From positions 164,356-196,355 of the forward strand of contig JAWAHN010000002.1 of NCBI GenBank assembly GCA_038889235.1: DNA of 32,000 nucleotides. The letters run 5' to 3'. Below the pieces are notes generated by a model. That model did not search any database. It worked only from the letters and a program-made list of their open reading frames with translations, and was not told where the DNA came from. Of this stretch, positions 1-20,383 are shown piece after piece. Made by a program: the position numbers and the translations under genes. The stretch's first letter is position 1, and every line of letters begins with the position of its first letter. This DNA is from Candidatus Jordarchaeales archaeon. GTDB taxonomy: Archaea; Asgardarchaeota; Jordiarchaeia; Jordiarchaeales; Freyrarchaeaceae.

Positions 1-1185
1 ACCGTCCTCGTAGAAGTGGGAGAAGTGTGCCATCATGGTTACTCCCGGATTTTTGGTCTCAACGGTCTTCTTAATCTCCCAGTAGAGTTCTTCGAGCTTA
101 TCGTAGGTCGCCGCGACGTCAACCGTGTCCGCTATTATATTGTATGACGACCTCAAGGGGTCAGGGTAGTACATGTCATATCTATGGTTCCACCAGTACT
201 CTGCAAGCTCCTTATCAACCTCCACACCACCCTCATTAAGACAAATTTCCGTGGCGATTCTCTCCTCTAACTCTACAATCTCCTTTAAGCCGTCAAATCC
301 CAGTATCAAGTATGATCCACCTTCAGGTATCTTTGCCCTCCCTTTAAGCGTAAACTGCGCGTCTAGGTAGTCGTAGAGGCGCACCACGCAGGGCTTTATT
401 CCCTTACGGAAGATTTTGATGACCGATTCTATTCCAGAGTGGAGATCCTTGAATATGAAAGCTTTAAACCTCCTCTCCTCTGGGAGAGGTTTTATCTTCA
501 ACGTCACCTCCGTTATTATTCCAAGCGTTCCCTCAGAGCCTATAAAGAGTTGCTTCAAATCCGGCCCCGTGGACGAGCGAGGTACTGGTTTCATCCTTAA
601 AATCTCACCCGTCGGTGTAACCACTTCGAGCCCAACAACCATGTCTTCAATTTTCCCATACTTCGACGAAAGTGACCCTGCAGAGCGACAGGCTACAAAG
701 CCCCCTACCGTTGAGCAGTACATTGATGCGGGGTAATGGGGGAGAGTGTAACCCATTTTATTTAGCTCTCTCTCTAAAACCTCTCCAAAGATTCCCGGCT
801 GCACGGTTACAAGTAACGACTTGTGATCTACGTTGAGTATCTTGTTCATCTTCTTTAGGTCTACTATTATGCCACCGTTTACCGGAATTGTTCCACCACA
901 GACACCAGCTCCTCCTCCGAAGGGTATCAAGGGGATCTTGAATCTATTAGCCAGCTTAACGATTTCCGAGACTTGCTTAGTGTTTTCAGGATGCACTATA
1001 AAATCTGGCTTCGGCAGCTCACCTCCACCTTTAATCCAAGGCACAAGTAACTGCCAAGTGTCACGTGAATAACACAGCGCATCGACCTCGTTGAAGTGAA
1101 CATTCTCTTTACCCACTATGCCGACCAGCTCTTCGTATATAATCTTCTTCTGTAACAGATCTCTTTTCCACGTGTTCAAACACAA
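1..1185 (-). CDS. Alkyl-dihydroxyacetonephosphate synthase (AGPS/YgcU)-like FAD-linked oxidoreductase, 3' end truncated by the window edge
   Basis: Not in the ORF track (no stop in window). Manual translation from TTG 1185 (alternative TTG 1179) gives an open frame of 395 codons to base 1: ...IYEELVGIVGKENV...PDFIVHPENTKQVSEIVKLANRFKIPLIPFGGGAGVCGG...HYPASMYCSTVGGFVACRSAGSLSSKYGKIEDMVVGLEVVTPTGE...VPRSSTGPDLKQLFIGSEGTLGIITEVTLKIKPLPE...AHFSHFYEDG. These are VAO/PCMH FAD_binding_4 motifs; PRxSTGPD and SxKYGxIED are typical of the AGPS-like branch. SD-like GGAGTGAGGGG just upstream. Confidence 0.88.
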   Translation of the reverse strand, partial: MCLNTWKRDLLQKKIIYEELVGIVGKENVHFNEVDALCYSRDTWQLLVPWIKGGGELPKPDFIVHPENTKQVSEIVKLANRFKIPLIPFGGGAGVCGGTIPVNGGIIVDLKKMNKILNVDHKSLLVTVQPGIFGEVLERELNKMGYTLPHYPASMYCSTVGGFVACRSAGSLSSKYGKIEDMVVGLEVVTPTGEILRMKPVPRSSTGPDLKQLFIGSEGTLGIITEVTLKIKPLPEERRFKAFIFKDLHSGIESVIKIFRKGIKPCVVRLYDYLDAQFTLKGRAKIPEGGSYLILGFDGLKEIVELEERIATEICLNEGGVEVDKELAEYWWNHRYDMYYPDPLRSSYNIIADTVDVAATYDKLEELYWEIKKTVETKNPGVTMMAHFSHFYEDG

Positions 1186-1191
1186 ACCCCC

Positions 1192-2412
1192 TCACTCCGA
1201 GTATATCCTCTTAGCCAGGAAAACTACGAAGTCGTCAACCGTCACGTTAATTCGTTTACGTGTAACACCCTCTGAAATGTTAATAGTGCAGAGGGGACAT
1301 GGCGTCACCAGGGATCCGATGTCAGACCTGGAAACCGCGTCAAGCCTCTTACTTCTTATCAGCGCGGAAACCGTCGGGTTATAGAACCTGAGCAAGCCAC
1401 CCGCTCCACAGCATTCACCGTCATCTTGTAGGATGACGTACTCAACATTTGGCAACGCCTCCAGTATTCTTTCAGCATAATCAATGGTGTATCTTCCAAC
1501 GTGCCTACCTAGGTGGCAGGATTGATGTAGCGCAACTTTAATTTTGTCGCCATTACGCGCCTTCTTACTTATCGCGTCAACACCAACCTCCTCAAACAGA
1601 AACTCGACTAAGTGTCTCACGCGGATGTCGTAGCCAAGCCGCTTAGCTGCCAACTTGAGCTCCGAAGTACACCCAGCACAAGTGGCGACAACCTCTCTCA
1701 CACCTATTTCCTCCATCTTCCCAAAAAAGTCCTGTTGCAGCTTGTCAGCCATCGCGACGTCCCCTGCAAGTCTCACCGGGAGGCCACAGCACTTCCAACC
1801 CTCTGGAATTCCGTAATATACTTCGAATGCCTCTAAGACGAGTTTTCCAGCCTCCTTAACCTCCAACAATTTAGCTTCAGCCTGGCACCCTGGAAAATAG
1901 GCTACCTGTCCCTCTTCCCTAAGAGGGACATCGCCTCTTAACGGTAACCCCAAAGCTTTAAGCCTCCACTCGACTCTCTCCTTCCTCTCCTCAGGGCTCA
2001 TAGGCTCAAATATGTAGCCGTATCTCGAAACGTTTTCCAGCAAGGATTTGAATTCTTCTGGCACTAGGTCGGGTCTTTGAACAAATATTTTCGCCCTAAG
2101 AAGCATAACCGCTTCCGGCACAGGAACATTTGTCGGGCACTTTTCCTGGCATCGTCCGCACAGCGTGCACATGTAGATTACCTCGCTCGCTCTCCAAAAC
2201 TCTCTGACATCTCTCGAGAGCTCGTCCGCTATCCCGCGTGGTCCAGGGTAAAACCTGCCTGTAGCCTCGAAAACAGGGCAGAATGTGAGGCACAACGAAC
2301 AATTCTGGCACTTCTCCACTTCACTATAAATTTCATCCTCATACAACGAGAAAACCACTATTTTCTCCTCTGCGAGCACTTTCTTTATGTGAATAACCTC
2401 TTTTCTCTCCAT
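1192..2412 (-). CDS. glpC: GlpC/HdrD-like Fe-S oxidoreductase (two 4Fe-4S motifs plus two CCG domains)
   Basis: CQNCSLCLTFCP and CTLCGRCQEKCP ferredoxin motifs; YFPGC, KCCG, CAGC, HQSCH, ECCGAGG and CPLC CCG-domain motifs; directly downstream of glpB. Confidence 0.85.
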   Translation of the reverse strand: MERKEVIHIKKVLAEEKIVVFSLYEDEIYSEVEKCQNCSLCLTFCPVFEATGRFYPGPRGIADELSRDVREFWRASEVIYMCTLCGRCQEKCPTNVPVPEAVMLLRAKIFVQRPDLVPEEFKSLLENVSRYGYIFEPMSPEERKERVEWRLKALGLPLRGDVPLREEGQVAYFPGCQAEAKLLEVKEAGKLVLEAFEVYYGIPEGWKCCGLPVRLAGDVAMADKLQQDFFGKMEEIGVREVVATCAGCTSELKLAAKRLGYDIRVRHLVEFLFEEVGVDAISKKARNGDKIKVALHQSCHLGRHVGRYTIDYAERILEALPNVEYVILQDDGECCGAGGLLRFYNPTVSALIRSKRLDAVSRSDIGSLVTPCPLCTINISEGVTRKRINVTVDDFVVFLAKRIYSE

Positions 2413-2425
2413 AACTCCCCCCCTT

Positions 2426-3748
2426 TTAGCTCGCCTGCATCGCTGCCTCCTCTCCTGCTATATAACCCGTAACTGCCGCAACGCCCATCCCGCTCTTCTC
2501 CCTCACATAGTTGTAACCTGAAATTATGGATCCCGCAACAAACAAGTTGTCGTATAGTGTTTTGTCACCCATAACGGGCTTCATATGTGCGTTAACCCTA
2601 ACACCGCAACCCATGAGGGGATGTCCTTCCGCAGGAAAGACCTCTTTAGACAGGAGGTGTGCTATTTTTCGCTTCCCCAACGGCTCTCCTTTCTCGTCGT
2701 AAAGTGGGAGTCCGAACACGGTTTCCCTTATTCTGTCCTCCTCTTCCACAAGTCCTCCTCCAACGAACTTCCCAGTTGCTAAAATATACGCCTCAGCTAT
2801 TGCGGTGAAAACCTTCTCTCCCGATTTAACTTTTAAGTTCACAACGCGCCCCCCTTCCTTTTCGAACCCGACAGCTTTATACCCCCTAAGGATTCTTACT
2901 CCTTTTTCCACAGCCTTCCTTTCAAGCGCGCTCATTAGTCTCTGAGCTGGCACTGACGGGGGCGGTGACAGCAGCTCGAACATGGTCACCCCTATTTCTC
3001 TTTCTAGCGCTTCCACGTTTCCCTGCGGCCTCCTCAACCCAAGTGTCGGGAGAGCTACGTGTGAAGCGCCACTTTCGGACACTATACCGCTAAGTTTCTC
3101 AGCCAACTCCATCTTAAACTCGTCCCCATCCATTACCCTCGCCAACTCTACAGTCGTCAGGTTTACTTCTCTTAAACTCGGGAAGGAAAGTCTAACACCT
3201 ACCACTTTTTCAATTTTGACGTTGAGTTTAGATGCAAAGTGTTTGAAACTCAAAGAGCAGAAGTTTGGGTTAAAGCTGGATAAGCCCTCAAATCCCACGA
3301 CGAGCAGCCTAGCTCCATCTAACTTCTCTAGCACCCCTCCCTTCATCGGCAACTGGTAAAAACAGGTAACCTTGAAGCTCCCCATAGTGTTTAGAAGCAC
3401 AACATTTCTATTGAGGTCTCCTCTTATCTCAGCTTCTCGGCCAGAAACCATCCTCGAAAGATACTCGACAGCTTCTCTAACAGCCTCGACAACATCCCTC
3501 TCACTCGAGATAACCGAGTAAGGGTGCGTCGGCGAGCATTCAACTGTTTGTGCTATTCCATCAATGGGGTTTAAAACTAAGCCTCCTCCTGGGGGACACC
3601 CCATGATATCGATGACTCCGGAGGACTGATAGCTGGCTCCTGAACCTTTTTCGATGACGACAACATCTAGTTTTTCGTCAGCCGCTCTTGTTGCAGCCAG
3701 TATACCTGCTAGCCCGCCGCCTATTACGATCACATCAGCCTCGATCAA
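2426..3748 (-). CDS. glpB: Anaerobic glycerol-3-phosphate dehydrogenase subunit B-like flavoprotein
   Basis: DVIVIGGGLAG FAD motif, SSGVIDIMG, PPSVPAQRL, ILATGKFVGGGL, NLFVAGSIISG, SGMGVAAVTGY; TTG start overlaps the glpA stop (TTGA). Confidence 0.9.
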   Translation of the reverse strand: MIEADVIVIGGGLAGILAATRAADEKLDVVVIEKGSGASYQSSGVIDIMGCPPGGGLVLNPIDGIAQTVECSPTHPYSVISSERDVVEAVREAVEYLSRMVSGREAEIRGDLNRNVVLLNTMGSFKVTCFYQLPMKGGVLEKLDGARLLVVGFEGLSSFNPNFCSLSFKHFASKLNVKIEKVVGVRLSFPSLREVNLTTVELARVMDGDEFKMELAEKLSGIVSESGASHVALPTLGLRRPQGNVEALEREIGVTMFELLSPPPSVPAQRLMSALERKAVEKGVRILRGYKAVGFEKEGGRVVNLKVKSGEKVFTAIAEAYILATGKFVGGGLVEEEDRIRETVFGLPLYDEKGEPLGKRKIAHLLSKEVFPAEGHPLMGCGVRVNAHMKPVMGDKTLYDNLFVAGSIISGYNYVREKSGMGVAAVTGYIAGEEAAMQAS

Positions 3749-5391
3749 GTAGCCGCTCCCCTCACAACATCCATTGATCCAACAGAAGCATACGCTGCCT
3801 GGGAAATCTCATACTCAATAAGCTGACTTCCTCTTAAAACGATGGAGTGCCCTTTCCACCTTTCCGCCAGAAATTCCTTAAGCTCTCTGAACGCCTCGTC
3901 AACCCCTAATCCCCTCTCCTCCGCCAGTATTGCCATCGCCTTGAACCCGCACGAGAACCCTTGACACGGACCCATACCCATCCTAGTTCTCCTACGCAGC
4001 GCGTCTAAAGTCAACCCCCACTCGTTTCTTATCACATACCTTAACTCGGCCTCCGTTACCGCTTCGCACAGGCATATGCTCGTGAGACGGCTTCTCTCTT
4101 TACTAGTCTCGGACAAGATGACGTTAGCCAGCGTGCCCTGCCTTGAAACGAGGCGCCCAGCTGTGTGTGGTGATATGTTGTGTTTCGAGGCCAGTTCTTC
4201 CACGTTAACCTTTCCATCTGCTCCGGGTAGTGGCTCCAAGTGAGTTCTACACTCAGCTTCGCAGCCAAGTTTTTCACAAACCAGATCTGTTATCTTTTCA
4301 GCCATAGCTCGGCATACTACCAGTTTTCCTCCTTCGACACTTATCAACCCTTTAACTCCATCCCTTTCCTCGTGGTCGACCACTCTGAAGTTCCTAGTCA
4401 CATCTCCCTCGGGTATCCACCACTGTGCAATTAGAGGTCTAACCCCGCACATAACCCTGATTATACGTGCTTTCCTTATGGATGGGACGGCCATCTCCAT
4501 GCTAGAAATTAGGTACTCTATTTCGTCGTACGTCGCCTCAGCCTCGTCCGGGCTCGTAAATATGTCTAATGCAGTCGTGCCCAAAATAGATCCAGTCTCA
4601 TGGGGGAAGAGGTATACCGTCCTACCATCTAATGCCTGGCATATTATCCCAAACCTCGTAATCCTCCTGTCAAAAATGACGTGTGCCCCCTTGTTGAGCC
4701 TCAATGTTTGTTTAATCCCAACCATCCTCGAAATCTCAGGAACCCACGCTCCCGCAGCGTTCACCACGATCTTACCTTTAACCTCATACTCCCTTCCAGT
4801 CATCCTGTCCTTTACCTTAACTCCATAAACTTCCCCGCCCTTGCACAGTATGTCGATTACCTCTGTGTAAGTCCTTATTTCTGCTCCATGCTGCTTAGCT
4901 GAGAGAGCTGTAAGAATCGTCAGCCTGAACGGGTCAATGAACATCTCGTCAAAATAAGCTGCGAGGATTATGTTAGGGCTCAACTTGGGCTCAAGCTCTC
5001 TAGCTTCTTGAGGCGTCAGAACTAGAACTGGGCTTGCCTGCCTTTTCTCAGTCAGAGTGCCATATTTTTCGACGAAGCTCGCCTTTCGCTTTATTTCTTC
5101 CTCGGTCAATATCGCAGTTATTATGGGAGTCCTAAAGACTATGTGGCCTGCTATGCGTGAAAGCGTCACTACTTCCGACGTACACATCTCTGAGAATTCC
5201 GGCTCCTGAAGAACATACTTTGTTCCTCCACTAATCATGCCGGCACAAGCTCCTGTGGCTCCAGAAGCCAGGTCTCCTCTCTCAAAAAGAATGGTTTTGA
5301 AGCCCCGCATGGCACAGTCTCTCGCGACACTAGTACCCGTTGAGCCTCCACCAATAACTATGACGTCGTACTCGTCCATGAAAACCACCAT
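3745..5391 (-). CDS. glpA: Anaerobic glycerol-3-phosphate dehydrogenase subunit A-like flavoprotein with C-terminal BFD-like [2Fe-2S] domain
   Basis: DVIVIGGGSTG, ARDCAMRG, IDPFRLT, VVNAAGAW, GVRPL, DHEERDG, GGKL; C-terminal CLCE...RRRTRMGMGPCQGFSC. Start probably ATG 5391 or 5379 rather than 5412, which overlaps the upstream stop. Confidence 0.88.
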   Translation of the reverse strand: MVVFMDEYDVIVIGGGSTGTSVARDCAMRGFKTILFERGDLASGATGACAGMISGGTKYVLQEPEFSEMCTSEVVTLSRIAGHIVFRTPIITAILTEEEIKRKASFVEKYGTLTEKRQASPVLVLTPQEARELEPKLSPNIILAAYFDEMFIDPFRLTILTALSAKQHGAEIRTYTEVIDILCKGGEVYGVKVKDRMTGREYEVKGKIVVNAAGAWVPEISRMVGIKQTLRLNKGAHVIFDRRITRFGIICQALDGRTVYLFPHETGSILGTTALDIFTSPDEAEATYDEIEYLISSMEMAVPSIRKARIIRVMCGVRPLIAQWWIPEGDVTRNFRVVDHEERDGVKGLISVEGGKLVVCRAMAEKITDLVCEKLGCEAECRTHLEPLPGADGKVNVEELASKHNISPHTAGRLVSRQGTLANVILSETSKERSRLTSICLCEAVTEAELRYVIRNEWGLTLDALRRRTRMGMGPCQGFSCGFKAMAILAEERGLGVDEAFRELKEFLAERWKGHSIVLRGSQLIEYEISQAAYASVGSMDVVRGAAT

Positions 5392-5401
5392 TGAGCTAGC
5401 T

Positions 5402-6862
5402 TTACTTCGCAACCTCAGAATAACTAGATAGCAGAAGTTTCATAAAAACAGGATGCATCTCGTCGTATACCTTCTTGTTCTCCAACCTAGGCTCTCTTAC
5501 CTCCACGAGTTTAACCATGGACTCAACAGCTTTTTCCAATGTCGGGAAAAGTTTAACGCCGATAGAGGCTAGTATGGCGGCTCCGAGCGCTCCAGCCTCC
5601 TCAACATGAGGGGCAACAACTCTCTTACCCGTTATATCTGCCTGTATCTGCCTCCAAAGCTTCGACCTAGCCCCTCCACCATCTACCCTTAATTCCTCAA
5701 CTGTTATGCCCATCCCGGAGATCATCTCTAAAAGTCCCCTTATGCCAAACCCGTTACTCTCCATTATGGCTCTAACTATGTGTTTCCTGCTGTGGGCAAA
5801 TGATAGGTTGTGGATAGACCCTTTGCCAAAGTTAAACAAAGGTATTATGATGAGCCCGTCTGATCCTGGGCTAACCGTTTCAGCTTCGTCTTCAAGTATG
5901 CTGTACGCGTCGACGCCGACATCCTCGGCCACTCTTTTCTCTAAGTGGCCGAAGTTGTCGCGGAACCATCTGAGTATCCTTCCCGTTCCCGGAATAACTC
6001 CCTCCAGAACCCACTTTCCTTCTATAACGTGGGGTAGCGTAAAGAGTATGCCGAATGGATCGTATATGGGCTTATCCAAGAGTACATCGATGAAGGTGCC
6101 AGTGCCCGTAGTAACCTTAGCTATTCCATGCTTCACAGCTCCCACTCCGACACATGAACACTGCTGATCTCCACCACCCAGAACCACAGGGGTACCTGCT
6201 TTAAGCCCGGTCTCCTTAGAAGCCTCACTGGTCACTTCCCCAATTACTTTCCCCGAAGGGGAAACGTCAACCCACTTGTCTAAGGGGATACCTATCTCAT
6301 CAGCTAACTTCTCATCCCAAGTGAGCTTTTCAACGTCAAATGGACCGTAGAAAGCGTTCGAAAAGTCCGACACAAAGGACCCTGCTAACTTGAAGTAGAA
6401 GTAGGAGTCAACGAACGAAAACTTGAAAGTTTCTTCGAATACAAATGGCAGATTATCCCTTATCCAAAGGACTTTTTTCAGACTCTCTCTTTGTCCTATT
6501 CTATCTTTCAACTTTTGTGCTGATTGCGAGGTACGAGCATCCATCCATGTAATCGCCCTATATAATGGCTTACCATTCCTATCTACAGGGAAAACTGTTG
6601 CTCTTTGTGTGCAAACACTAACAGCAGTCACATCAGCCGGAGAGACACGCGCATTCTTTAATGCGATCTGTATAGCCCTGCAAGCGGCATTCCACCATTT
6701 CTCTGGAACCTGCTCAGCCTGTCCTGGAAGCTCCGAAATTGTAGGATACTCCTCGTAACTGCCCCCTAGAATGAAACCATTAAGGTTAAATAGCAATGCG
6801 CGAACACCCGTAGTTCCTACATCAAAAACCCCTATTACCTCTCCCTTCCTTTCCAAACCCAC
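5402..6862 (-). CDS. FGGY-family carbohydrate kinase (glycerol kinase/xylulokinase-like)
   Basis: FDVGTTGVR, TQRAT, WMDART, GGDQQ, TTGTGTF, DGGGARS motifs; GTG start with GGTGAG SD; first gene of the glp-like operon. Confidence 0.9.
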   Translation of the reverse strand: MGLERKGEVIGVFDVGTTGVRALLFNLNGFILGGSYEEYPTISELPGQAEQVPEKWWNAACRAIQIALKNARVSPADVTAVSVCTQRATVFPVDRNGKPLYRAITWMDARTSQSAQKLKDRIGQRESLKKVLWIRDNLPFVFEETFKFSFVDSYFYFKLAGSFVSDFSNAFYGPFDVEKLTWDEKLADEIGIPLDKWVDVSPSGKVIGEVTSEASKETGLKAGTPVVLGGGDQQCSCVGVGAVKHGIAKVTTGTGTFIDVLLDKPIYDPFGILFTLPHVIEGKWVLEGVIPGTGRILRWFRDNFGHLEKRVAEDVGVDAYSILEDEAETVSPGSDGLIIIPLFNFGKGSIHNLSFAHSRKHIVRAIMESNGFGIRGLLEMISGMGITVEELRVDGGGARSKLWRQIQADITGKRVVAPHVEEAGALGAAILASIGVKLFPTLEKAVESMVKLVEVREPRLENKKVYDEMHPVFMKLLLSSYSEVAK

Positions 6863-6911: not shown

Positions 6912-6928
6912 ATTTATAACACTTTCTC
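6912..6928 (-). promoter_or_regulatory. Candidate BRE/TATA promoter of the glp-like operon
   Basis: Minus strand reads GAGAAAGTG-TTATAAAT, a purine-rich BRE-like stretch followed by a TATA box about 50 nt upstream of the kinase start. Confidence 0.5.
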
Positions 6929-8411: not shown

Positions 8412-8951
8412 GTGTTGCACTTGAGCCAGGCAAAATACATTTTTAAAATAGTTGTCGTGGGGGATGGTGCGGTAGGAAAAACCAGTCTAATTAAGCGTTA
8501 TACTGAGGAGTCCTTTCAATCGGATTACATAATGACCATTGGAGCAAATTTTGCTGTTAAGAACGTTGAAGTTGATGGAATCTTAATAAAGCTTCAAATA
8601 TGGGACTTGGCTGGGCAGCCTCACTTTAAGGAGGTGCGCTCCTCATTCTATAAAGGAGCTGTAGGAGTCATGTATGTCTTTGACGTTTGCCGCCCAGAAA
8701 GTTGTGTTAACCTGTTAAACTGGAAAGAGGAACTCGTAAAGGTGTGCGGAGAGGTTCCAGGCGTCCTCCTTGCTAACAAAATAGATTTAGAAGAGCATCG
8801 GAAAGTCACTGTTGATATGGGAAAAGAGCTCGCCGCACGTCTTGGCGGGATCCCCTACTTTGAAACAAGCGCCCTAACAGGTGCTGGAGTGAGGGAAGCC
8901 TTCCAAAAAATTGCGGAACTCGCATACGAAGCGGTGACGAAGAAGAAATGA
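8412..8951 (+). CDS. Rab-like Ras-superfamily small GTPase (eukaryotic signature protein)
   Basis: G1 GDGAVGKTS, G2 MTIG, G3 WDLAGQ, G4 NKID, G5 ETSAL; RabF-like segments IGANF, KLQIW, FYKGA; no C-terminal cysteine. Confidence 0.95.
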   Translation: MLHLSQAKYIFKIVVVGDGAVGKTSLIKRYTEESFQSDYIMTIGANFAVKNVEVDGILIKLQIWDLAGQPHFKEVRSSFYKGAVGVMYVFDVCRPESCVNLLNWKEELVKVCGEVPGVLLANKIDLEEHRKVTVDMGKELAARLGGIPYFETSALTGAGVREAFQKIAELAYEAVTKKK

Positions 8952-8971: not shown

Positions 8972-10153
8972 TTAGGATGAATGCTTCTTCATTTTCTCAA
9001 CGACGTCTCTCAAGTCGTCTAAGAACTCTAAGACATGCCTTTTCTTCACGTGCGGCATCACGACCACTCTTAAAAACTCTGGGAATTTTCCCAGAGCCCA
9101 ACCCCTTTTCCTTAACTCTATGTCTAGGTCGCATACGTCGATAACCTGCGACAAAACGCCCACTATGTTCATTGTGGGTTTCACCGGAATCTTCAATCCG
9201 TCTATTTCTTCAATCCCCTGCTCCAGCAGTTTTGTGTTTTTCATGCACCTCGTAACTATTTTCACGTAACCCTCAATCCCCAAATGTTTAAGTAAAGCCC
9301 ATGTTGCAATGACGGCTGCCCCTGAACGTGTTCCCAACAATATCGGATGATTGTATTTTCCCCCTGCTAGGTATGGTATTTCAAAACTATTTTCGTTGAA
9401 AAGTCTTTCATCCCGAAGCAGTAGACCTCCTGCAGGTATGGGAGCCATTCCCATTTTGTGCGGATCCACAGTCATCGAACAAACTCCTTCATTTCTGAAG
9501 TCGTAGCTTGGAACTCTGAAGCCTGCTCTCTCCAAGAAGGGTAAAACAAACCCACCGAACGCTGCGTCGACGTGCAGGTATATTCCCTTGTCCTCAGCTA
9601 TGTCGGAAAGAGCGTCTATCGGGTCGACTACACCTAGAGCGGTTGTCCCGGCTATGCCAACTAAGGCAAATGTGTCTTTTGTTATTTTATCTTGCACGTC
9701 ATCGACGTCAACACGGTATTCCTCGTCAAGTCTAGCTTTAATCAGTTTTAAGTCAAGCAAGTCTGCCGCTTTTTCAAAGGACGCGTGAGCTGACTCTGGA
9801 ACTATAATTGTCCTGCCACTCTTACCCTCTCTTCGTGAAATATTTCTGGCTATTCGAATCGCGGATATATTGGCTTCCGTTCCTCCACTTGTTATTATTC
9901 CCGCGGCATCGGGATTTCCTAGAAGCTCTCCTAACATGCCGATAACTTCTTTTTCCAGCTGAAAGGTTGCAGGGAAAAGCCCTGGGTCGCCCAGATTTTT
10001 CTCGATGTACTTGAAAAATATTTTCCTTGCTAGCGGATGCGGGGAAGTACACATGCTTCCCAATATTCTTCCGGAACGGTAATTCATATCCGATGCTAAT
10101 CTTTCCTCTAGTTCTCTTAAAACCTCCTTGGCGCTTATCCCTTTCAGTTCCAT
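8972..10153 (-). CDS. mfnA: Group II PLP-dependent decarboxylase, MfnA family (L-aspartate/L-tyrosine decarboxylase)
   Basis: ILGSMCT, NLGDPGLF, SGGTEAN, HASFEKA, HVDAAFGG, VDPHKMG (PLP lysine), GTRSG; last gene of the PoK-PPS-PanE run. Confidence 0.92.
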   Translation of the reverse strand: MELKGISAKEVLRELEERLASDMNYRSGRILGSMCTSPHPLARKIFFKYIEKNLGDPGLFPATFQLEKEVIGMLGELLGNPDAAGIITSGGTEANISAIRIARNISRREGKSGRTIIVPESAHASFEKAADLLDLKLIKARLDEEYRVDVDDVQDKITKDTFALVGIAGTTALGVVDPIDALSDIAEDKGIYLHVDAAFGGFVLPFLERAGFRVPSYDFRNEGVCSMTVDPHKMGMAPIPAGGLLLRDERLFNENSFEIPYLAGGKYNHPILLGTRSGAAVIATWALLKHLGIEGYVKIVTRCMKNTKLLEQGIEEIDGLKIPVKPTMNIVGVLSQVIDVCDLDIELRKRGWALGKFPEFLRVVVMPHVKKRHVLEFLDDLRDVVEKMKKHSS

Positions 10154-10159
10154 CGGCTA

Positions 10160-11080
10160 TCACGCCTTTCTCGCAAACTTCGCTTCTAACGTTTTAACTA
10201 TCGCGGTAACTGTAAAGTTTATCGGTGTTTTCACTCCATATTTTTCCCCATAAACTACTATCGCACCATTTATGTAGTCTATCTCTGTTCTCTTTCCTTT
10301 CTCCAGATCCTGAAGCATGGAGTTTTTGTTCCTAGCAGTCATTCTTGCAATCTTAACTGCTTTTTCGAAAGGTTTCTCCAAGAAGCGAATGCCGTGTTTA
10401 GTCGCAACCTCTTCTCCTTCAGAGATTATTTTTTTCATAACTTCTAAAAGAAGCTTGTTTTCAACTATTTCTCCGTTCCTAAGGCCAGTTATAGCCCCAA
10501 GGGGATTTATCCCGGCGTTAACGAGCACCTTTCCCCAAACTTCCCTTTCGATGTTGTTTGTAAACGCGGCGTTAAAACCCGCCATTCTAAGGAGCTCAAC
10601 AACTTTCTCTGCTCCTTCAGGGGGCGGGCCGAATGGTGGCCCTATGAAGCTTTCTCCTCTCCCAGTGTGTCTCACAACTCCCGGCTCTATGAGTTGAGCC
10701 CCCTCAGAAGTTATCCCTCGCAAGATGTTTTTCTCCCCTAAAACCTCAGCCGCCTCTTTCTCTGTGCCTAAACCATTTTGCATGCAAACAACTATGCTGT
10801 CTTTCCTCATCAAATGTTTAGCATCTGCAGCGGCGTTTTTAGTGTCATAGGCTTTAACGGTCAGAAAAACCACGTCCACTTTACCAACATCTAAAACATT
10901 GGTGAATGCTTCAACTTTAACCGTAAATGTTTCCCTTTCTCCCTCTATCCGCAACCCATTGTTTCTTATCGCTTTCACGTGTTTTTCTCGACCAATTAAT
11001 ACTACGTCTACGCCGGACTTTGCCAGCATTCCTCCGAAAAGGCTCCCTATAGCTCCTGCGCCTAGAACGGCGATTTTCAA
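10160..11080 (-). CDS. panE: 2-dehydropantoate (ketopantoate) reductase
   Basis: KIAVLGAGAIG Rossmann motif, LTVKAYDT, QNGLG, WGKVLVNAGINPL, SSMLQD-like NSMLQDLEKGKRTEIDYINGA. Confidence 0.95.
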   Translation of the reverse strand: MKIAVLGAGAIGSLFGGMLAKSGVDVVLIGREKHVKAIRNNGLRIEGERETFTVKVEAFTNVLDVGKVDVVFLTVKAYDTKNAAADAKHLMRKDSIVVCMQNGLGTEKEAAEVLGEKNILRGITSEGAQLIEPGVVRHTGRGESFIGPPFGPPPEGAEKVVELLRMAGFNAAFTNNIEREVWGKVLVNAGINPLGAITGLRNGEIVENKLLLEVMKKIISEGEEVATKHGIRFLEKPFEKAVKIARMTARNKNSMLQDLEKGKRTEIDYINGAIVVYGEKYGVKTPINFTVTAIVKTLEAKFARKA

Positions 11081-11148
11081 ATCACATCCCCAAAGGGGGA
11101 GAAGGGCGTTTCTCTAAAATATTTAACCACTTTGGCCAAAGTTTTAGG

Positions 11149-11958
11149 CTAGTCTGGATTTTCCAAGTACACTTCCGTAGACTCGGGTATTGTTCCCCCG
11201 GACTCCGCTATTGCTGTTAGTCTATCCCTTATTATCTTCAATACTTCCGCCAAAACTTTTCTGTTGTCGTATTCTTTCAGAATTTTTTCCAGTTGCTCTC
11301 TTGAGAGCTTTTTAAGTCTTCTTACCTCATTCACCAACAATGGCATGCATCTGACTATATTGTCGACTATTGTTATGTTTGCGTATTGTGCCGTCCTGCT
11401 GAGTGGGTTTAAATCTATTGCGATAACTGTTTTCCCCAGTCTTCTAAGTGCTTGCGTTCTGTCGCCATCCTCTATTGGGACCAAAACCACGTCTGCTATT
11501 AGTATACCTCTTCTGTCGACCACTCTTCTAACGCTTGATATTTCGGGAATTTCCCCATCAGCGGTTTCACCTACACCCAGAACTTCTTTTGCTCCTGCCT
11601 CTTCAAGAACCCTCTTTATAGCGTTAAGCCTTTCCGGGCTCCTGTAAAAAAGGTTTACCTCTATTTTTGCGTTGACTTCTTCAGCAAGTTCTACGACTTC
11701 TCTCGGGGAAAGGGCTGCCAGGTTGCCGTTAACGCTTATCACGGGGTATTTTGCTAATAGTAGTGCTGCTGCCGCGGCGCGTATTGCTTCCATGGCTGGG
11801 GGTTGTGTTTTCTCACCGAGTAAGTAGTCGAAAGCCTCTCCCCTGCCATGGGCTATTAGGCCTGCTTTAGCTACTATATTGTTTTCCATACCGTGTATGA
11901 TTTTGTGCCTTATTCTTAGGGATTCGGCTCTGGGGTGTCCTGGGGGTATTTCATCCAT
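11149..11958 (-). CDS. Archaeal phosphopantothenate synthetase (PPS)
   Basis: [65 protein letters not shown]; adjacent to pantoate kinase. Confidence 0.93.
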
Positions 11959-11982
11959 GTTCTCCTTTCCCCTTTTTTTAAT

Positions 11983-12927
11983 TTATAGCAGTCTTGCTCC
12001 CCTAAAATCAATCTTGCATATTTCAACAAAACCTTTGGGCATACATTCCTTGATTATTTTGTAAGCTTTTTTTGCATATTTACGGGTGGTGACGCAGAAA
12101 ACGCTTTCTCCGAGCATTATCATGCCGCAGTATTTGAATCCAGCTTTTTCAAGTTCAGAAACGGTTTCTTCCACTTTCTTTGTTGCTAATCCCGAACTTG
12201 CTGTGAACTCTTTCGCGAGTAACGCCATTTTCTCTACAGTGGCGTCTTTGAGCAGCTCGTCCACTAACTTTTCTCCCGCTTCATTTATTTTCTCTCTTTT
12301 ACCCTTATGCGAGATTACACTTTTCGTCTCTATTCCTCCTGTTGAACCACAGACTACGACATAGTTTTCCGGGACCGGTATATTATCCACGACACCGTAT
12401 CCTGGCGCCCCCTCCTTAACCCTTATTTCGACTCCGCCGATGTTTTGTGCCGTAACGTCTCCCAACCCGGTGAGATTCTCGATCTCCACTAAGTGCGCTA
12501 TTTGGCCCACTCTATTTTTTGTTAAACCGAGTTTTAGTGCGTCATTAAGTGCGAGAGCTGTACTGAAAGCAGCAGCACCGCTGGAACCAAAACCCGCATA
12601 TACGGGAACTTCGACGCTTTGCATTATAGTGACAGCGTAATTTTGCGAGTATTTCTCATTTGCTAGTCTTATCATTTTTTCTGCAGCGCTTCTAGTAACT
12701 TTTGGGTCCTCTATATGGGGTTCAACAAGTATCTTAACAGAGTTTTCTTCGGCAACCTCAACTTTAACCGTCGAGATAACTCCTCTGTCTAGGCACATGC
12801 CAGCTCCTCTAGAGCCTTTTTCTAACGGGTTTTTTGCTTCGTCGCGTATCTGAAAAAAGCATGTGATATGTGCCGGACAGAACGCCTTTGAAGTAGTCGT
12901 CAACTTGAGAACCTTCCCTTCCATCAC
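11983..12927 (-). CDS. Archaeal pantoate kinase (PoK, GHMP family)
   Basis: AFCPAHITCFF, GSRGAG, PVYAGFGSSGAAA GHMP loop, TGLGDV, GGVEIRVKEGAPG, MIMLGESVF. Confidence 0.92.
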   Translation of the reverse strand: MMEGKVLKLTTTSKAFCPAHITCFFQIRDEAKNPLEKGSRGAGMCLDRGVISTVKVEVAEENSVKILVEPHIEDPKVTRSAAEKMIRLANEKYSQNYAVTIMQSVEVPVYAGFGSSGAAAFSTALALNDALKLGLTKNRVGQIAHLVEIENLTGLGDVTAQNIGGVEIRVKEGAPGYGVVDNIPVPENYVVVCGSTGGIETKSVISHKGKREKINEAGEKLVDELLKDATVEKMALLAKEFTASSGLATKKVEETVSELEKAGFKYCGMIMLGESVFCVTTRKYAKKAYKIIKECMPKGFVEICKIDFRGARLL

Positions 12928-13140
12928 TCTTCAGCTAAAAATGCGCCACGTAAAAATATAAAAGATTTTTTTCCGAGAATTATCATTTCACATTCACTTT
13001 GAACACATCCCCCCATCAAAAGCTTCCTTTTAAGGGAATATAAAACCTCATTCATCGTACAACTATGTTTCTTTAATCTCATCCTTCTATCTCGAAAAAG
13101 AATAACTTTCGTTACTGTGCCTTCGCTAAGGGTGTTGTGG

Positions 13141-14118
13141 ATGCTTAATTTGAAATGCCAGGAGTGTGGGGCAGACGCCGTAATGTGTGAGAGCCACTAT
13201 GTTTGTCCAAACTGCGGTTTAGTTATCGAGCAACTCTTGGTTCCCCCTCTCTATCACGTTTCCTCAGATGAACCTATCAGGGGTGCATGGGTCTACCCCG
13301 AAACTCAAACAGGAAGCTACATTGACTACAAAGACGCCTTCACGTTTAAAGATCTAAAAGGAAACGTGTTACCTCCTCGCAGCCAGAGCATTTACAAGAG
13401 ACTAAAACTTAAAGCACTTCACGATAAAGTAAGAGTTCTTTCAGCAACACATTACAGGGCGCTTTATGCGCTTAAACGCGTAACAGAGAACCTTGGACTT
13501 CCAGTCATCGTAAGGGAACGTGCCGCGAAGATTTACCGCAGAATAGTTCGTGACACAAAAGTCAGCAATAATATTCTCCTTGTTGCCGCCTGTCTTCTTC
13601 ATGCTGTGAGAGAGCAGAAAAACTGTGCCCTTGTAACTTTAACTGAGATCACCGAGGCGTTTACCTCGCTTGGCTATAGAGTAACCCCGAAAAAACTACT
13701 GCGCGCGTCGTTCATAGTTCGAAAAATTGTAGGTGCGCATCAGAGATTACGTAGGAGCGAAGAATACCTTCCTAGAGCGATAAATACTCTGCTAGAGTCA
13801 GAAAGTGTCCTCCATAAATTGAAAGAAAAAAGACTAAATGTCACAGAGTACAAGGCGCAATTAACCAGTTTCTGCTCAAAGATTCTCTCTGAAGTGAAAG
13901 TTAATGAAAGAGGCGGAAGACGGCCGTACACTTTCCTAGCAGCAGTAATCTACTGCGCCGATAAACTTCTGGCGCTAAAGAGGGGTCACCCCCCTATTCT
14001 GACACAAAAATTGGTTGCAGAAATTTTGGGTGTAGCGGAATACAGCCTAAGAGACCACTACAATACTATCTTAAAACCAAGGTACGTTGTTAATACAACA
14101 TTAATAAGACAATTATAG
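13141..14118 (+). CDS. Divergent TFB/TFIIB-family transcription initiation factor
   Basis: Zn ribbon CQEC...CPNCG; cyclin repeat 1 (ENLGLPVIVRERAAKIYR) and repeat 2 (GRRPYTFLAAVIY...TQKLVAEILGVAEYSLRDHY). Start probably ATG 13141 (track gives GTG 13117). Confidence 0.8.
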   Translation: MLNLKCQECGADAVMCESHYVCPNCGLVIEQLLVPPLYHVSSDEPIRGAWVYPETQTGSYIDYKDAFTFKDLKGNVLPPRSQSIYKRLKLKALHDKVRVLSATHYRALYALKRVTENLGLPVIVRERAAKIYRRIVRDTKVSNNILLVAACLLHAVREQKNCALVTLTEITEAFTSLGYRVTPKKLLRASFIVRKIVGAHQRLRRSEEYLPRAINTLLESESVLHKLKEKRLNVTEYKAQLTSFCSKILSEVKVNERGGRRPYTFLAAVIYCADKLLALKRGHPPILTQKLVAEILGVAEYSLRDHYNTILKPRYVVNTTLIRQL

Positions 14119-14251
14119 AATACCACCTATTACCTATATATTTTATTTTTTCTTTAAACATTACTTCTTTTATGGTTTAAAAGTTTAAATATGCTTGCAT
14201 GGGTACTAAAATACTTGAACTGTTAACTAACGTTACCTTGGGGTAATATTA

Positions 14252-15550
14252 TTGATTTCTGAACATACGTCGAAGCAAATCATCGGAACTAAGAGTCAAA
14301 TTCTTAAGGGAAAAAAGATTGCTCTTTGTATAACAGGAAGTGTAGCCGCAGTTGAGTGTCCAATAATCGCTAGAGAACTAATGAGACACGGCGCTGAAGT
14401 ATACGCGGTGATGACGCCTGCCGCTACCAAGTTGATTTCCCCTGCTTTGATGGAGTGGGCCACAGGAAACCCTGTTGTAACTGAGCTAACTGGGATGGTG
14501 GAGCACATTTCTCTAGCTGGAGAACATCCAAATGCCGTCTCCCTTGTTCTAGTTGCCCCCGCTACAGCAAACACCATAAGCAAGATAGCTTATGGCATTG
14601 ATGACACTCCCGTGACGACTGTTGTTACAACAGCGATAGGTGCAAGAATTCCAGTAGTAGTTGTGCCAGCTATGCACGAGTCCATGTACCGCCACCCGAT
14701 AATACTGGAAAACTTAAAGCGCCTGGAAAGGTACGGGATAGAAGTCATAGGACCTCGTTTCGAAGAAGGAAAAGCGAAAATGGCCCACATAAACACCATA
14801 ATTGCGCGAGTCATAGAGATCCTTACACAGAAGAAAGATATGAAAGGATTGAAGGTCCTAATTACAGGAGGTCCCACAAGGGAGTATATTGACGCAGTAA
14901 GGTACATTAGCAATCCAAGCAGCGGCAGAATGGGTGTAGCGCTAGCCGAGGAGGCCTTCTCTAGAGGCGCGGAAGTGACCCTCATATATGGGCCTGGAAC
15001 GGTCGAACCCCCCAGCAATATTAAAGTTATTAGAGTTGAGACAACAAAAGAGATGCTGGATGCCTCCCTCTCGGAAATAAGCGAGAAATGCTATGACATA
15101 ATAATATGCGCTGCAGCAGTTGCAGATTACGCCCCAAAAAACAGGGTGAACGAAAAGATCCCATCTGGAAAAGAAAGTTTAGAAATCTCCCTTGTACCAT
15201 TACCAAAAGTGATTGACGCTATAAGGGTCGCTGCACCGAAAGCATTCCTAGTTGGCTTCAAAGCGGAATATGGAGTTTCGAAAGAAGAGCTAATTTCGAG
15301 GGCTATGAAGAAACTTAAAAACGCAAACTTAGACATGATTGTCGCCAACGACGTATCTAAACCAAACGCAGGCTTTTTTGCAGAGTCAAACGAAGTTTAT
15401 GTGATAGACAAGGAAGGAAACGTCCACCATATCCCACTTGCCCATAAAAGGGTTGTAGCATCAAAGATCCTAGATCTAATCCTCGAAAAACTCTGGGAGA
15501 ACAGAGGAAGAACACTCCCCGAAGAAGAACTAATTAAATCAAGCACATGA
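14252..15550 (+). CDS. coaBC: Bifunctional phosphopantothenoylcysteine decarboxylase/synthetase
   Basis: KKIALCITGSVAA, APATANTISKIA, PAMHESMY, LITGGPTREYIDAVRYISNPSSGRMG, AAVADY, LVGFKAE, IVANDV. Confidence 0.96.
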   Translation: MISEHTSKQIIGTKSQILKGKKIALCITGSVAAVECPIIARELMRHGAEVYAVMTPAATKLISPALMEWATGNPVVTELTGMVEHISLAGEHPNAVSLVLVAPATANTISKIAYGIDDTPVTTVVTTAIGARIPVVVVPAMHESMYRHPIILENLKRLERYGIEVIGPRFEEGKAKMAHINTIIARVIEILTQKKDMKGLKVLITGGPTREYIDAVRYISNPSSGRMGVALAEEAFSRGAEVTLIYGPGTVEPPSNIKVIRVETTKEMLDASLSEISEKCYDIIICAAAVADYAPKNRVNEKIPSGKESLEISLVPLPKVIDAIRVAAPKAFLVGFKAEYGVSKEELISRAMKKLKNANLDMIVANDVSKPNAGFFAESNEVYVIDKEGNVHHIPLAHKRVVASKILDLILEKLWENRGRTLPEEELIKSST

Positions 15551-15859: not shown

Positions 15860-16780
15860 CTATGCCACTTTTAACTGTACCAAGTCTCCTTCTCCAAATT
15901 TAACAGTCGTATTCTTATATGGAACCAATTTAACCATAGCTTTTTCGCTAAGACTTAGAAAGGCTGAAATCCCCTTCAAAGGTAACCCCTCGCACTCCAA
16001 AGAAACATCTCTTACTACGATTTTAACTCCATTACGCGCAAAGCCACACACCCATCCTATAACCGTTCCACCTAACATAACGTTTCCCCCTGCTCCTATG
16101 CTCTCTCCTCCAGCAAGTATGACGCCCCCTCTTCTATAGTAAGGGAGACCGCAGTCTAGTATTCCGAATCTCTCTCCAACCTTCACCCCCAACCCTTTCA
16201 CTCTTCCAAAACTTGCAGTACAACGATCATCGACATAAGCCAAGATGTATGTATCATTAATATCAATCACCTCTAGGAAAACGTTTTCCTCCTCTCTTCC
16301 CCCCTTGACTTCTCCATTAATGTTCAGAACTATCGGTAAAAATCCCTTAGCCCTAAAAACATAATCGGGATATTTCACCTCTATGTGGGCGTGCAAGCTC
16401 GTCCACGGGTCGAAAAAGCCGCTTCTTAATGGCTCCCCTACAAGATCCCCCACATTTAATTGATCCCCCTCTTCAACAAACGGTTTGACATGAAGTACTC
16501 TAACGATCAGGCTCGGGTTCTCCTCACTTCTAATGAGGATCACGTAGTCAAACTCGCTGTGTGGAAACCTCCTTAACGCAGCTGCCTTAATTCTTCTAAC
16601 GCCGACGACTTGCCCTGGCGTTAAACAGTAGAAAACGTGTTTATCCCCCAAAAGGTAGGCGTCTAATGCCCCCTCATAAGCGTGAGCATAATAAGGACTG
16701 TTAAATAGAGAAAAGTAATCAACATTAAACCTGTAGATCCTTATACCATCGCACGAAGCGACGAACTCTAAATTGCTCAT
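15860..16780 (-). CDS. Conserved archaeal hypothetical protein with M23/LytM-like metal motifs
   Basis: FSLFNSPYYAH...ALD and LHVKPFVEEGD...GDLVG...SG...HAHIEV resemble the M23 barrel-sandwich pattern; strong SD GAGGTGAG before ATG. Confidence 0.55.
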   Translation of the reverse strand: MSNLEFVASCDGIRIYRFNVDYFSLFNSPYYAHAYEGALDAYLLGDKHVFYCLTPGQVVGVRRIKAAALRRFPHSEFDYVILIRSEENPSLIVRVLHVKPFVEEGDQLNVGDLVGEPLRSGFFDPWTSLHAHIEVKYPDYVFRAKGFLPIVLNINGEVKGGREEENVFLEVIDINDTYILAYVDDRCTASFGRVKGLGVKVGERFGILDCGLPYYRRGGVILAGGESIGAGGNVMLGGTVIGWVCGFARNGVKIVVRDVSLECEGLPLKGISAFLSLSEKAMVKLVPYKNTTVKFGEGDLVQLKVA

Positions 16781-19033: not shown

Positions 19034-20383
19034 TTACACATTCACTCTTCCCGCCCTAGCAAAACAATATGCAACTGTTGTAAACCACATCACCGCCGTC
19101 ACAGCAATTGCACCTGTCGCATAACTTACTGGCGCGTCAATCAGCAGAGATGTAAATAATGCCATAGCAAGCTCCTCCTTTGCACCCCCGTAAAGGTACA
19201 TTTGCGTGAGAATCTTTGGAAGCTCATAGTGGGGGATGTACAAGTTTAAAAAGTAGTTAAAGTTAACCATTAGAACCCACCAGGAATGTTGCAGCGCGAA
19301 CTGCAAAACAAATGGAGCCAGGATTTTTGGGAAAACTGCAAGCGTTTTCAGGTAGCCGCCTGCAGCCATATCCAAACACAGGAAGGATCCTGCGACAATT
19401 AAGCCGAAAATTGAAAAGTTAAACTTGCGTGCTTTCAAACCCCTAACAGACCCTATTATGGTAACCAGTGAGATAATCCCCAGGCACACGTAGTTTATTC
19501 TCTCATAGAGTAAGCTTGGATTACTTCCCCAAACGATATATCGGGGAATCACTCCCGGAATATAGAGGTACGGCAATCCAATGTATGCAAACAGCAAGAA
19601 AAACACCGTTTCTAGTACAGCTATCGCCTTGTAGGGTGGCTTAGTCAAAGCGACTCCGAACGTTCTCGCTTCAAACTCTGCGGAGCCGGCGTAAAACAGC
19701 CATACAACCGACCCCACAGCCAATGCGTCCACTATGCACATAGTGATAGTGTACGTCACCACTATGTTATTCACCCATAAATCCCAGAACCAGTTGATAA
19801 TGAAAACATGCAATTTCTCCAAGTAGTATATTGAAACTAGATAAATGGGTCCTCCACATATCGCTGCAAACGTTATAAGAGATACAGCCAACTTTACAAG
19901 TCTTTTTTGTTCCCAAAACCACTCACTGGCGTTGAGAACTCTACCCGCGAGTATCACGCTTGAAACAACACTTAGTACTGGGAACAAGACGGGGAGTACA
20001 AAAAGCGCTACCAGAAGTAGTGTGTTAAAGCCATAGAAAATCCTGTACCTTAAAGGTATAATTGTGGTGGTCGTGTCAAGCAGCTGAAGCGTTTTAATTA
20101 TCCTCTCGTGGCTTATAACAGCGAAGAGGAGCCATGGGAGGGAGAAAAATAGGGGGGCAAAAATGTAGTTTATAGCCATGTTTAGCGGGTACATGTGTTC
20201 AACACACTGCAACATGGTGTGAAGTAGAGGATAGCTAAAAACTTCTATGTCGAATGGCAGAGGGTAGGGGCGCAGTTTGACAGGAGAGAATGCGAAGAGA
20301 ACCATGAAGTACAGTGGAGTTAAGAAAACTGACAGCGCCAGCATAAGTCGCGAAAAAACAAATCCTCCAACTTTAAAGCTCAA
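19034..20383 (-). CDS. Polytopic membrane protein of unknown function
   Basis: 449-aa ORF with roughly ten hydrophobic segments by eye; TTG start after a G-run SD; no recognisable transporter motif. Confidence 0.8.
   Translation of the reverse strand: MSFKVGGFVFSRLMLALSVFLTPLYFMVLFAFSPVKLRPYPLPFDIEVFSYPLLHTMLQCVEHMYPLNMAINYIFAPLFFSLPWLLFAVISHERIIKTLQLLDTTTTIIPLRYRIFYGFNTLLLVALFVLPVLFPVLSVVSSVILAGRVLNASEWFWEQKRLVKLAVSLITFAAICGGPIYLVSIYYLEKLHVFIINWFWDLWVNNIVVTYTITMCIVDALAVGSVVWLFYAGSAEFEARTFGVALTKPPYKAIAVLETVFFLLFAYIGLPYLYIPGVIPRYIVWGSNPSLLYERINYVCLGIISLVTIIGSVRGLKARKFNFSIFGLIVAGSFLCLDMAAGGYLKTLAVFPKILAPFVLQFALQHSWWVLMVNFNYFLNLYIPHYELPKILTQMYLYGGAKEELAMALFTSLLIDAPVSYATGAIAVTAVMWFTTVAYCFARAGRVNV

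Follow-up and report, generated by a model that had tools for sequence, protein, structure and literature searches.

In the GlpK-GlpABC systems of Escherichia coli and Haloferax, and in the FngABC/GlpABC family (Schut et al. 2026), a kinase is followed by GlpA (with flavin adenine dinucleotide, FAD, and a [2Fe-2S] cluster), GlpB and GlpC (with a pair of [4Fe-4S] clusters and a pair of CCG domains). An operon with this same order lies at one end of a 32,000-nucleotide (nt) stretch of a Candidatus Jordarchaeales genome (Asgardarchaeota; assembly GCA_038889235.1, contig JAWAHN010000002.1), hereafter the window (G000:C2:164356-196355), which is part of a 2.14-Mb genome that is 95% complete. Unlike its described counterparts, this operon opens with a kinase that does not read as GlpK-type, carries a second dehydrogenase module behind the GlpABC-type genes and belongs to an anaerobic host. 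We hold with moderate confidence that its six genes form a catabolic unit in which glycerol, or a small soluble polyol closely related to it, is oxidised anaerobically by way of one kinase and two flavin/iron–sulfur (Fe–S) dehydrogenase modules.

The appended module, genes 5 and 6, resembles systems of a different kind. Alkyl-dihydroxyacetonephosphate synthase (AGPS; EC 2.5.1.26; structures 2uuu and 4bby), the enzyme that forms the ether bond of eukaryotic ether lipids, shares with gene 5 the vanillyl-alcohol oxidase (VAO) fold and its catalytic Arg, Tyr and His residues; unlike the eukaryotic and myxobacterial enzymes, however, gene 5 comes with an Fe–S redox partner and has relatives in operons for soluble carbohydrates. 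The layout of the pair, a FAD_binding_4/FAD-oxidase_C flavoprotein with a protein made of a ferredoxin-like domain and two CCG domains, is that of GlcDEF and of two-subunit D-lactate dehydrogenases, whereas the active site of gene 5 is AGPS-type and not of the metal-dependent D-2-hydroxy-acid type. The ygc cluster of E. coli (ygcNOPQRSUW, yqcE, ygcE) offers a further parallel: YgcU has the same size as gene 5, belongs to the same clade and is accompanied by the FGGY kinase YgcE and dedicated electron-transfer proteins. In that cluster, an electron-transfer flavoprotein (ETF; YgcQR) and the FixCX-like YgcNO stand in for the CCG subunit, a short-chain dehydrogenase/reductase (SDR), transporters and the GlpP-like YgcP are present, and GlpABC is missing.

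Organization and conservation of the operon

The genes and the presumed promoter are as follows, in window coordinates unless otherwise stated.

5402-6862, minus strand: gene 1, FGGY-family carbohydrate kinase, 486 aa, with FGGY_N and FGGY_C (Pfam)
3745-5412, minus strand: gene 2, GlpA-type FAD/[2Fe-2S] catalytic subunit, 555 aa counted from a TTG start (alternative ATG start at 5391), with DAO, DAO_C and Fer2_BFD
2426-3748, minus strand: gene 3, GlpB-type flavoprotein subunit, 440 aa, with FAD_binding_2 and TIGR03378
1192-2412, minus strand: gene 4, GlpC-like Fe–S subunit, 406 aa, with Fer4_8 and two CCG domains
1-1185, minus strand, clipped by the window edge: gene 5, VAO-fold flavoprotein assigned to the AGPS/YgcU clade, with FAD_binding_4 and FAD-oxidase_C; 479 aa when complete (G000:C2:164101-165540), of which the window holds the first 395
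G000:C2:162976-164094, minus strand, outside the window: gene 6, Fe–S protein, 372 aa, with Fer4_8 and two CCG domains
6912-6919, minus strand: TATA-like box TTATAAAT, read directly from the sequence

The box, about 50 nt upstream of the GTG with which the kinase gene starts, is presumably the promoter of the operon; a purine-rich stretch is found upstream of it, and GGTGA stands immediately 5′ of the GTG. The genes are tightly packed. Depending on the GlpA start chosen, the kinase and GlpA genes overlap by 11 nt or are separated by 10 nt, GlpA and GlpB overlap by 4 nt, and the gaps between GlpB and GlpC and between GlpC and the flavoprotein are 13 and 6 nt. Gene 6, co-oriented with the others, follows gene 5 after 6 nt and occupies the region 261-1379 nt before window position 1. 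The upstream neighbour of the kinase gene is a divergent M42 peptidase gene, and a convergent Get3/ArsA gene closes the unit downstream of gene 6. A first-pass annotation of this DNA had described a five-gene operon; the five packed, co-oriented genes behind one TATA-like box are indeed there, but the gene count is six. The domain composition strongly supports a build of two modules, each consisting of flavoprotein(s) and a CCG Fe–S subunit, behind a single kinase.

The operon is real and conserved. A homologue of gene 5 is present at E<=1e-60 in 200 of 301 sampled Asgard genomes, the weakest of these matches being possible paralogues. Its closest homologues, at 85% identity, are from Jordarchaeales, followed by those of Jordarchaeaceae, Atabeyarchaeia, Njordarchaeum and Thorarchaeota; with a Ras-like GTPase also in the window, the first-pass guess of an Asgard archaeon is borne out. 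Synteny was compared at 20 Asgard loci from many families. The flavoprotein and CCG genes are adjacent at 18 of these and 3 kb apart at one more, an FGGY kinase lies within the cluster at 16, and GlpABC adjoins it at 11. The complete six-gene order recurs in Atabeyarchaeia and Thorarchaeota genomes, so that the arrangement, whose conservation the first-pass annotation had left to a survey of relatives, is kept in Jord-, Atabey- and Thorarchaeia and beyond.

Several Asgard lineages have only the kinase, flavoprotein and CCG genes at the locus, and distant DAO-type homologues are found elsewhere in the genomes of such lineages. In one of them a set like FngABC of Pyrococcus (DAO plus Fer2_BFD, Pyr_redox_2 and a small open reading frame) takes the place of GlpABC, with a major facilitator superfamily (MFS) transporter gene also adjoining; the pairing of a DAO-type dehydrogenase with the AGPS-like protein thus persists despite a swap of the dehydrogenase. 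The invariant core is therefore the flavoprotein with its CCG protein, usually together with the kinase, and the DAO-type dehydrogenase is a frequent but replaceable companion. A xylose-isomerase-like TIM-barrel gene beside the Atabeyarchaeia cluster was considered as an EryC-type clue to the substrate and rejected, as it is not conserved at other loci. At one locus (L039:13075-14678, genome G154) the GlpA orthologue is in two pieces, 13075-14040 and 14046-14678, which may reflect a frameshift, a stop codon or an assembly error.

The flavoprotein of gene 5 and its predicted partner, gene 6

Gene 5 matches FAD_binding_4 and FAD-oxidase_C in Pfam at 1e-42 and 4e-41. Its best sequence matches in the PDB are the AGPS entries of Dictyostelium (2uuu, 238 bits) and guinea pig (4bby, 219 bits), both above the D-lactate dehydrogenase match (163 bits). 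AGPS entries are also the best PDB fold matches of its AlphaFold model (pLDDT 81.8), with Foldseek TM values of 0.87-0.88 against 4bby and 5ae2. In Swiss-Prot the best fold match is E. coli YgcU (Q46911; TM 0.89/0.88, 33% identity, 484 of 484 residues covered), and eukaryotic AGPS comes next, at 27-29% identity and with only its C-terminal ~500 residues covered. Alignment to 4bby places Arg269, Tyr399 and His436-438 of gene 5 at AGPS Arg419, Tyr578 and the "HHH" loop His615-617, the Arg and Tyr positions being taken from the deposited R419H and Y578F mutant entries (guinea-pig numbering), and the H-x-S-H motif of Dictyostelium AGPS is kept. Since the window cuts gene 5 short, the first-pass annotation had proposed recovering the C-terminus and looking for the catalytic His motif; the recovered sequence carries it. 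At the middle position of the loop, residue 437, this genome and most prokaryotic representatives have His, and the majority of 40 aligned Asgard orthologues have Gln (consensus SHQHGVG); the flanking His436 and His438 do not vary.

The comparison with the GlcD family gives the opposite picture. Gene 5 scores 267 against the GlcD profile TIGR00387, whose cut-off is 568, and relative to mouse D-lactate dehydrogenase it has Tyr for the His of "GNFH" and His for the Glu of "GEHGIG", residues which we take to be metal ligands. A quick maximum-likelihood tree, restricted to prokaryotic sequences, places gene 5 in one clade with YgcU and further proteins that carry the HHH signature (SH-aLRT 96) and puts E. 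coli GlcD and the genome's own two GlcD-like paralogues in a separate clade. On these sequence comparisons, membership of gene 5 in the AGPS/YgcU clade rather than among GlcD-type proteins is strongly supported. The original call of an AGPS homologue is supported by the scores, the kept residues and the tree, and the grouping with GlcD that had been raised against it appears neither in the prokaryote-only tree nor in the scores.

Gene 5 nevertheless differs from eukaryotic AGPS in several ways. Overall identity is 27-31%, and gene 5 is 479 aa long versus 584-658 aa for AGPS. It has no counterpart of the first ~85-160 residues of the eukaryotic enzymes (its residues 14-18 align with residue 84-162 of the AGPS entries), and between query residues 280 and 294 it is missing an insertion present in AGPS. 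In the eukaryotic enzymes, the N-terminal region helps to form the lipid tunnel and the membrane face. The two longest AGPS-like representatives that we retrieved (P0219 and P0147) are no closer to solved AGPS than gene 5 is.

An exhaustive profile-free search returned 2,925 cluster representatives at E<=1e-30, and the R...H-S-H...Y...HHH signature is identical in 127 of the best 150 of them. Such a spread over diverse prokaryotes means that the signature is no specific marker of ether-lipid enzymes. The genes found beside or fused to these relatives concern sugars and polyols. One representative is fused to a PfkB sugar kinase (P0184), in an operon with DeoR, a DeoC aldolase, a GPI-type isomerase, a ROK kinase and an ATP-binding cassette (ABC) sugar transporter, and another is fused to a HAD sugar phosphatase (P0267). 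In Roseibium the cluster holds LacI, the flavoprotein, an FGGY kinase, a UgpC-type ABC transporter, glycerol dehydrogenase and an SDR, and in Enterococcus gilvus, glycerol dehydrogenase, a GlpP antiterminator, an FGGY kinase and the flavoprotein. The Mesorhizobium cluster consists of an FGGY kinase, the flavoprotein, a degenerate CCG-like protein, LacI and an ABC transporter. The ygcU/ygcE neighbourhood in E. coli, to which the first-pass annotation had pointed, is likewise real, and gene 5 shares the genomic pairing of YgcU-type proteins with an FGGY or other sugar kinase and a dedicated electron-transfer partner. To judge from these sequences and contexts, the signature marks a large uncharacterised family in operons for soluble carbohydrates or polyols with dedicated electron-transfer partners. 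No work on the function of YgcU or of archaeal AGPS homologues turned up in literature searches.

Some variants of this arrangement deserve a description of their own. Many relatives of ~900-1000 aa (P0122-type) join the AGPS-like unit to a second FAD_binding_4 domain in what resembles a GlcD + GlcE-like fusion; where a Fer4 + CCG gene comes directly after this double-FAD form, the three-part layout is GlcDEF-like with an AGPS-type active site. The CCG-like protein of Mesorhizobium (plasmid NZ_CP083953; L040:10464-11588), annotated as a "hypothetical protein", bears a weak resemblance to the CCG region at the C-terminus of gene 6 (E 2e-10). Within the alignment the CCG and CPxC cysteines have been lost, and the protein may be a degenerate, cluster-less partner.

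Gene 6 carries a ferredoxin-like Cys domain at its N-terminus. In NCBIfam it matches TfrB, LdhH and GlpC best, and its Cys pattern is invariant across 19 orthologues. A natural fusion links the two functions in a single chain: the metagenomic protein P0172 joins the flavoprotein to Fer4 and CCG domains, with a GlpA-like gene directly downstream of it. The predicted complex of genes 5 and 6, made from alignments of 40 and 19 sequences, respectively, has an ipSAE of 0.92 (best of three controls, 0.00), with at least 93% of contacts shared between runs and a partner pLDDT of at least 91. The ipSAE mark is reached by 58 of 80 solved complexes and by 2 of 110 mismatched pairs, a rough calibration since our own alignments were used. 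In the model, residues 6-82 of gene 6, its Fe–S domain, sit against the FAD-binding domain of gene 5, a result that favours binding but falls short of proof; we know of no solved complex of this kind. The structural prediction and the gene order strongly support gene 6 as the electron-transfer partner of gene 5, and adjacency, natural fusion and predicted complex together make a two-subunit dehydrogenase the most economical reading. An invariant Fe–S electron-transfer partner implies net redox chemistry at the flavoprotein, and in this indirect way the conserved CCG protein argues against a redox-neutral reaction of gene 5.

Gene 6 and the GlpC-like gene 4 are paralogues (29% identity over 334 aa), and the presence of two parallel flavoprotein + CCG modules raises the possibility of two stereo-complementary dehydrogenases, with GlpABC acting on sn-glycerol-3-phosphate (G3P) and the AGPS-like/CCG pair on sn-glycerol-1-phosphate (G1P), both giving dihydroxyacetone phosphate (DHAP). 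AGPS-type residues bind the DHAP moiety, and descent from an ancestral site that formed DHAP at flavin N5 would account for the relationship to AGPS; the host, an archaeon, has G1P as its lipid backbone and geranylgeranylglyceryl phosphate (GGGP) synthase in its genome. However, the flavoprotein + kinase module is also common in bacteria, for which no G1P metabolism is known, and our data have no bearing on stereochemistry. We regard this alternative as very unlikely.

Kinase, GlpABC-type genes and a proposed polyol pathway

The kinase of gene 1 scores below every NCBIfam equivalog cut-off (LsrK 288 against 528, XylB 280 against 380, GlpK, TIGR01311, 225 against 590). In E. coli GlpK the glycerol contacts are, as we take them, Arg83, Glu84, Trp103, Tyr135, Asp245 and Phe270. 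Gene 1 keeps Arg83, Trp103, Asp245, Gln246 and Phe270, but Glu84 is replaced by Ala and the Tyr135 loop is deleted; the same loop is gone from three other Asgard orthologues, in which Glu84 is also replaced (by Ala, or by Asp in the one from Thorarchaeota). Residues and scores indicate that gene 1 is not a canonical glycerol kinase, and the altered kinase active site noticed in the first-pass annotation is borne out. The genome has four FGGY kinases, none of them a canonical GlpK.

Genes 2-4 carry the complete GlpA/GlpB/GlpC domain architecture. Gene 3 passes the GlpB cut-off (TIGR03378, 204 against 174) while gene 2 falls short of the GlpA profile TIGR03377 (455 against 553), with a further GlpA score of 399.5 against 425. 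Gene 4, which has a 2x[4Fe-4S] ferredoxin-like domain, matches TfrB, LdhH and GlpC best in NCBIfam, all below cut-off and GlpC well below. Gene 2 is 37% identical to E. coli GlpA, and its "HSGARY" motif reads "SGGTKY"; three other Asgard orthologues have similar S-G/S-G-x-K-Y variants, and the solved G3P-oxidising enzymes 3da1 and 2rgh carry HGG(L/I)RY at this position. The change in GlpA that had been read as an argument against plain glycerol is present. Enzymes of the FngA/GlpA family have been described as flavin/Fe–S, possibly bifurcating, systems, and for many of them a polyol other than glycerol seems to be the substrate (Schut et al. 2026). According to the same study, couples of the G3P/DHAP type (about -190 mV) need flavin/Fe–S or bifurcating machinery in anaerobes.

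It is conceivable that the operon simply serves glycerol catabolism, with gene 1 as a divergent glycerol kinase, GlpABC converting G3P to DHAP, and the flavoprotein/CCG pair as an unrelated passenger that is merely co-transcribed, e.g., a dehydrogenase for a D-2-hydroxy acid such as glycolate or the D-lactate of a methylglyoxal bypass. A published analysis of Atabeyarchaeia takes the orthologues for GlpK and GlpABC and predicts that glycerol is used anaerobically, with no mention of the two downstream genes (flavoprotein and CCG protein). GlpB passes its cut-off and GlpA comes near its own, gene 1 could be the organism's glycerol kinase given that no canonical GlpK exists elsewhere in the genome, and a VAO flavoprotein with a CCG protein is the layout of GlcD/GlcF-type 2-hydroxy-acid dehydrogenases. 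Yet the flavoprotein is not of the GlcD or D-lactate dehydrogenase type by profile score, active-site residues or tree, and the kinase has lost two glycerol-contacting elements. In addition, the pairing of kinase and flavoprotein recurs in bacteria that have no GlpABC, which points to a functional link rather than a passenger. Taking both sides into account, we find plain glycerol catabolism with a passenger unlikely.

We hypothesize instead that the six proteins act in one catabolic sequence. The non-canonical FGGY kinase would phosphorylate a polyol, and the GlpABC-type complex, by analogy with its family, would oxidise the hydroxyl beside the phosphate-bearing carbon and yield DHAP or a DHAP-like ketol phosphate. 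The AGPS/YgcU-clade flavoprotein would then act on this ketol phosphate or a sister intermediate: its AGPS-type Arg/Tyr/His site may activate the carbon next to the carbonyl at flavin N5, with a net two-electron oxidation as the outcome instead of an acyl-for-alkyl exchange. Electrons would pass from FAD to the [4Fe-4S] domain and the CCG clusters of gene 6 and onward to a further acceptor. Genes 5 and 6 would in this way form a two-subunit dehydrogenase with the architecture of GlcD/GlcF or Dld/Fe–S pairs and an AGPS-type catalytic centre. Its counterpart in bacteria would be YgcU with the ETF and FixCX-like proteins of E. coli. In bacterial clusters the steps may be swapped, with a glycerol dehydrogenase or SDR first and the kinase second, which would again give a ketol phosphate. 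The sequence from kinase to GlpABC to AGPS-like enzyme, already suggested in the first-pass annotation, is a reasonable pathway order.

Several considerations weigh against this sequence of reactions. The third step is one that we infer, and no member of the prokaryotic YgcU/AGPS-like clade has an established substrate. If the polyol is plain glycerol, a further oxidation of DHAP, a central metabolite, has no known metabolic rationale. The Asgard lineages with only kinase, flavoprotein and CCG genes raise the possibility that the flavoprotein acts directly on the kinase product and not after GlpABC, although their genomes have distant DAO-type homologues elsewhere. All the AGPS catalytic residues are conserved in the flavoprotein, which would also fit a substitution reaction without redox, the complex of genes 5 and 6 is a model and not a measurement, and the published Atabeyarchaeia interpretation is the simpler GlpK + GlpABC one.

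The relevance of the module lies in its combination of parts: a full AGPS catalytic apparatus is paired with an Fe–S electron-transfer subunit and a sugar-type kinase, and the same module is found in many bacteria. Solving it would provide a function for a large orphan family, of which the E. coli ygc genes are a variant, and could point to the evolutionary source of AGPS chemistry. It would also correct or extend the reading of Asgard genomes in terms of glycerol use by GlpK and GlpABC.

Ether lipids and the genes around the operon

The first-pass annotation had proposed that the operon scavenges or remodels ether lipids (alkyl- or isoprenyl-glycerols). The kinase would phosphorylate a mono-O-substituted glycerol, GlpABC would oxidise C2 to give an alkyl-DHAP analogue, and the AGPS-like enzyme would remove or exchange the substituent via a flavin-N5 adduct. 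If true, no catabolic pathway of this kind for ether lipids would have been known before, and the eukaryotic ether-lipid enzyme would have a prokaryotic precursor here. In favour of the proposal are the kept AGPS catalytic Arg, Tyr and HHH and AGPS as the best PDB match by both sequence and fold; the substrate-site motifs of kinase and GlpA are non-canonical, the operon order is compatible with the proposed chemistry, and the organism itself makes ether lipids. Its GGGP synthase (PcrB family, 217 bits) is encoded in the same window at 30899-31729 (plus strand), 24 kb from the operon. As the canonical archaeal ether-bond enzyme, to go by this family assignment, it is GGGP synthase that makes the organism's own ether bonds.

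Most of what we found about the flavoprotein family runs counter to an ether substrate. The catalytic signature is not specific to ether-lipid enzymes, as shown by its spread among prokaryotes, and gene 5 lacks the N-terminal region of eukaryotic AGPS. A redox-neutral exchange needs no conserved Fe–S electron-transfer partner, and eukaryotic AGPS has none. The modules of E. coli, Enterococcus, Roseibium and Mesorhizobium stand beside sugar ABC or MFS transporters, glycerol dehydrogenase and GlpP-type regulators, and the PfkB fusion ties one homologue to a sugar kinase. A search of the 95%-complete genome for a PF01553 (PlsC/GNPAT-type) acyltransferase, which could supply acyl-DHAP, came up empty, and this also counts against the proposal. 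A search for fatty acyl-CoA reductase (FAR; PF07993) gave matches in 14 of 14 control genomes and is hence uninformative. With an ether substrate, the Fe–S subunit would maintain or reset the redox state of the flavin or drive a reductive cleavage. Nothing points to an O-alkyl or isoprenyl substituent or to acyl/alkyl exchange, and we consider the ether-lipid interpretation possible but quite unlikely.

The companion suggestion, that the operon is a forerunner of eukaryote-type ether lipid chemistry, is weakened as well. The Asgard protein is 27-31% identical to eukaryotic AGPS, as given above, whereas Myxococcus AGPS is reported to be ~42% identical to its human counterpart. An origin in Myxococcota has been traced for the plasmalogen genes FARAT and PEDS1, in a study where AGPS itself gave no phylogenetic signal. 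The operon gives no current support to an Asgard origin of eukaryotic ether lipids.

The remainder of the window holds genes of other kinds. A myo-inositol-1-phosphate synthase gene (26305-27384, plus strand) probably relates to inositol head groups. A small GTPase of the Ras/Roc/Arf type (179 aa; 8412-8951, plus strand), a type typical of Asgard genomes, precedes a coenzyme A biosynthesis cluster at 8972-15550 that comprises a pyridoxal-phosphate-dependent decarboxylase, ketopantoate reductase, phosphopantothenate synthetase, a GHMP kinase and Dfp, with a TFIIB-repeat protein (13117-14118) within it. Two open reading frames on the minus strand, of 449 aa (19034-20383) and 306 aa (15860-16780), have no Pfam match.

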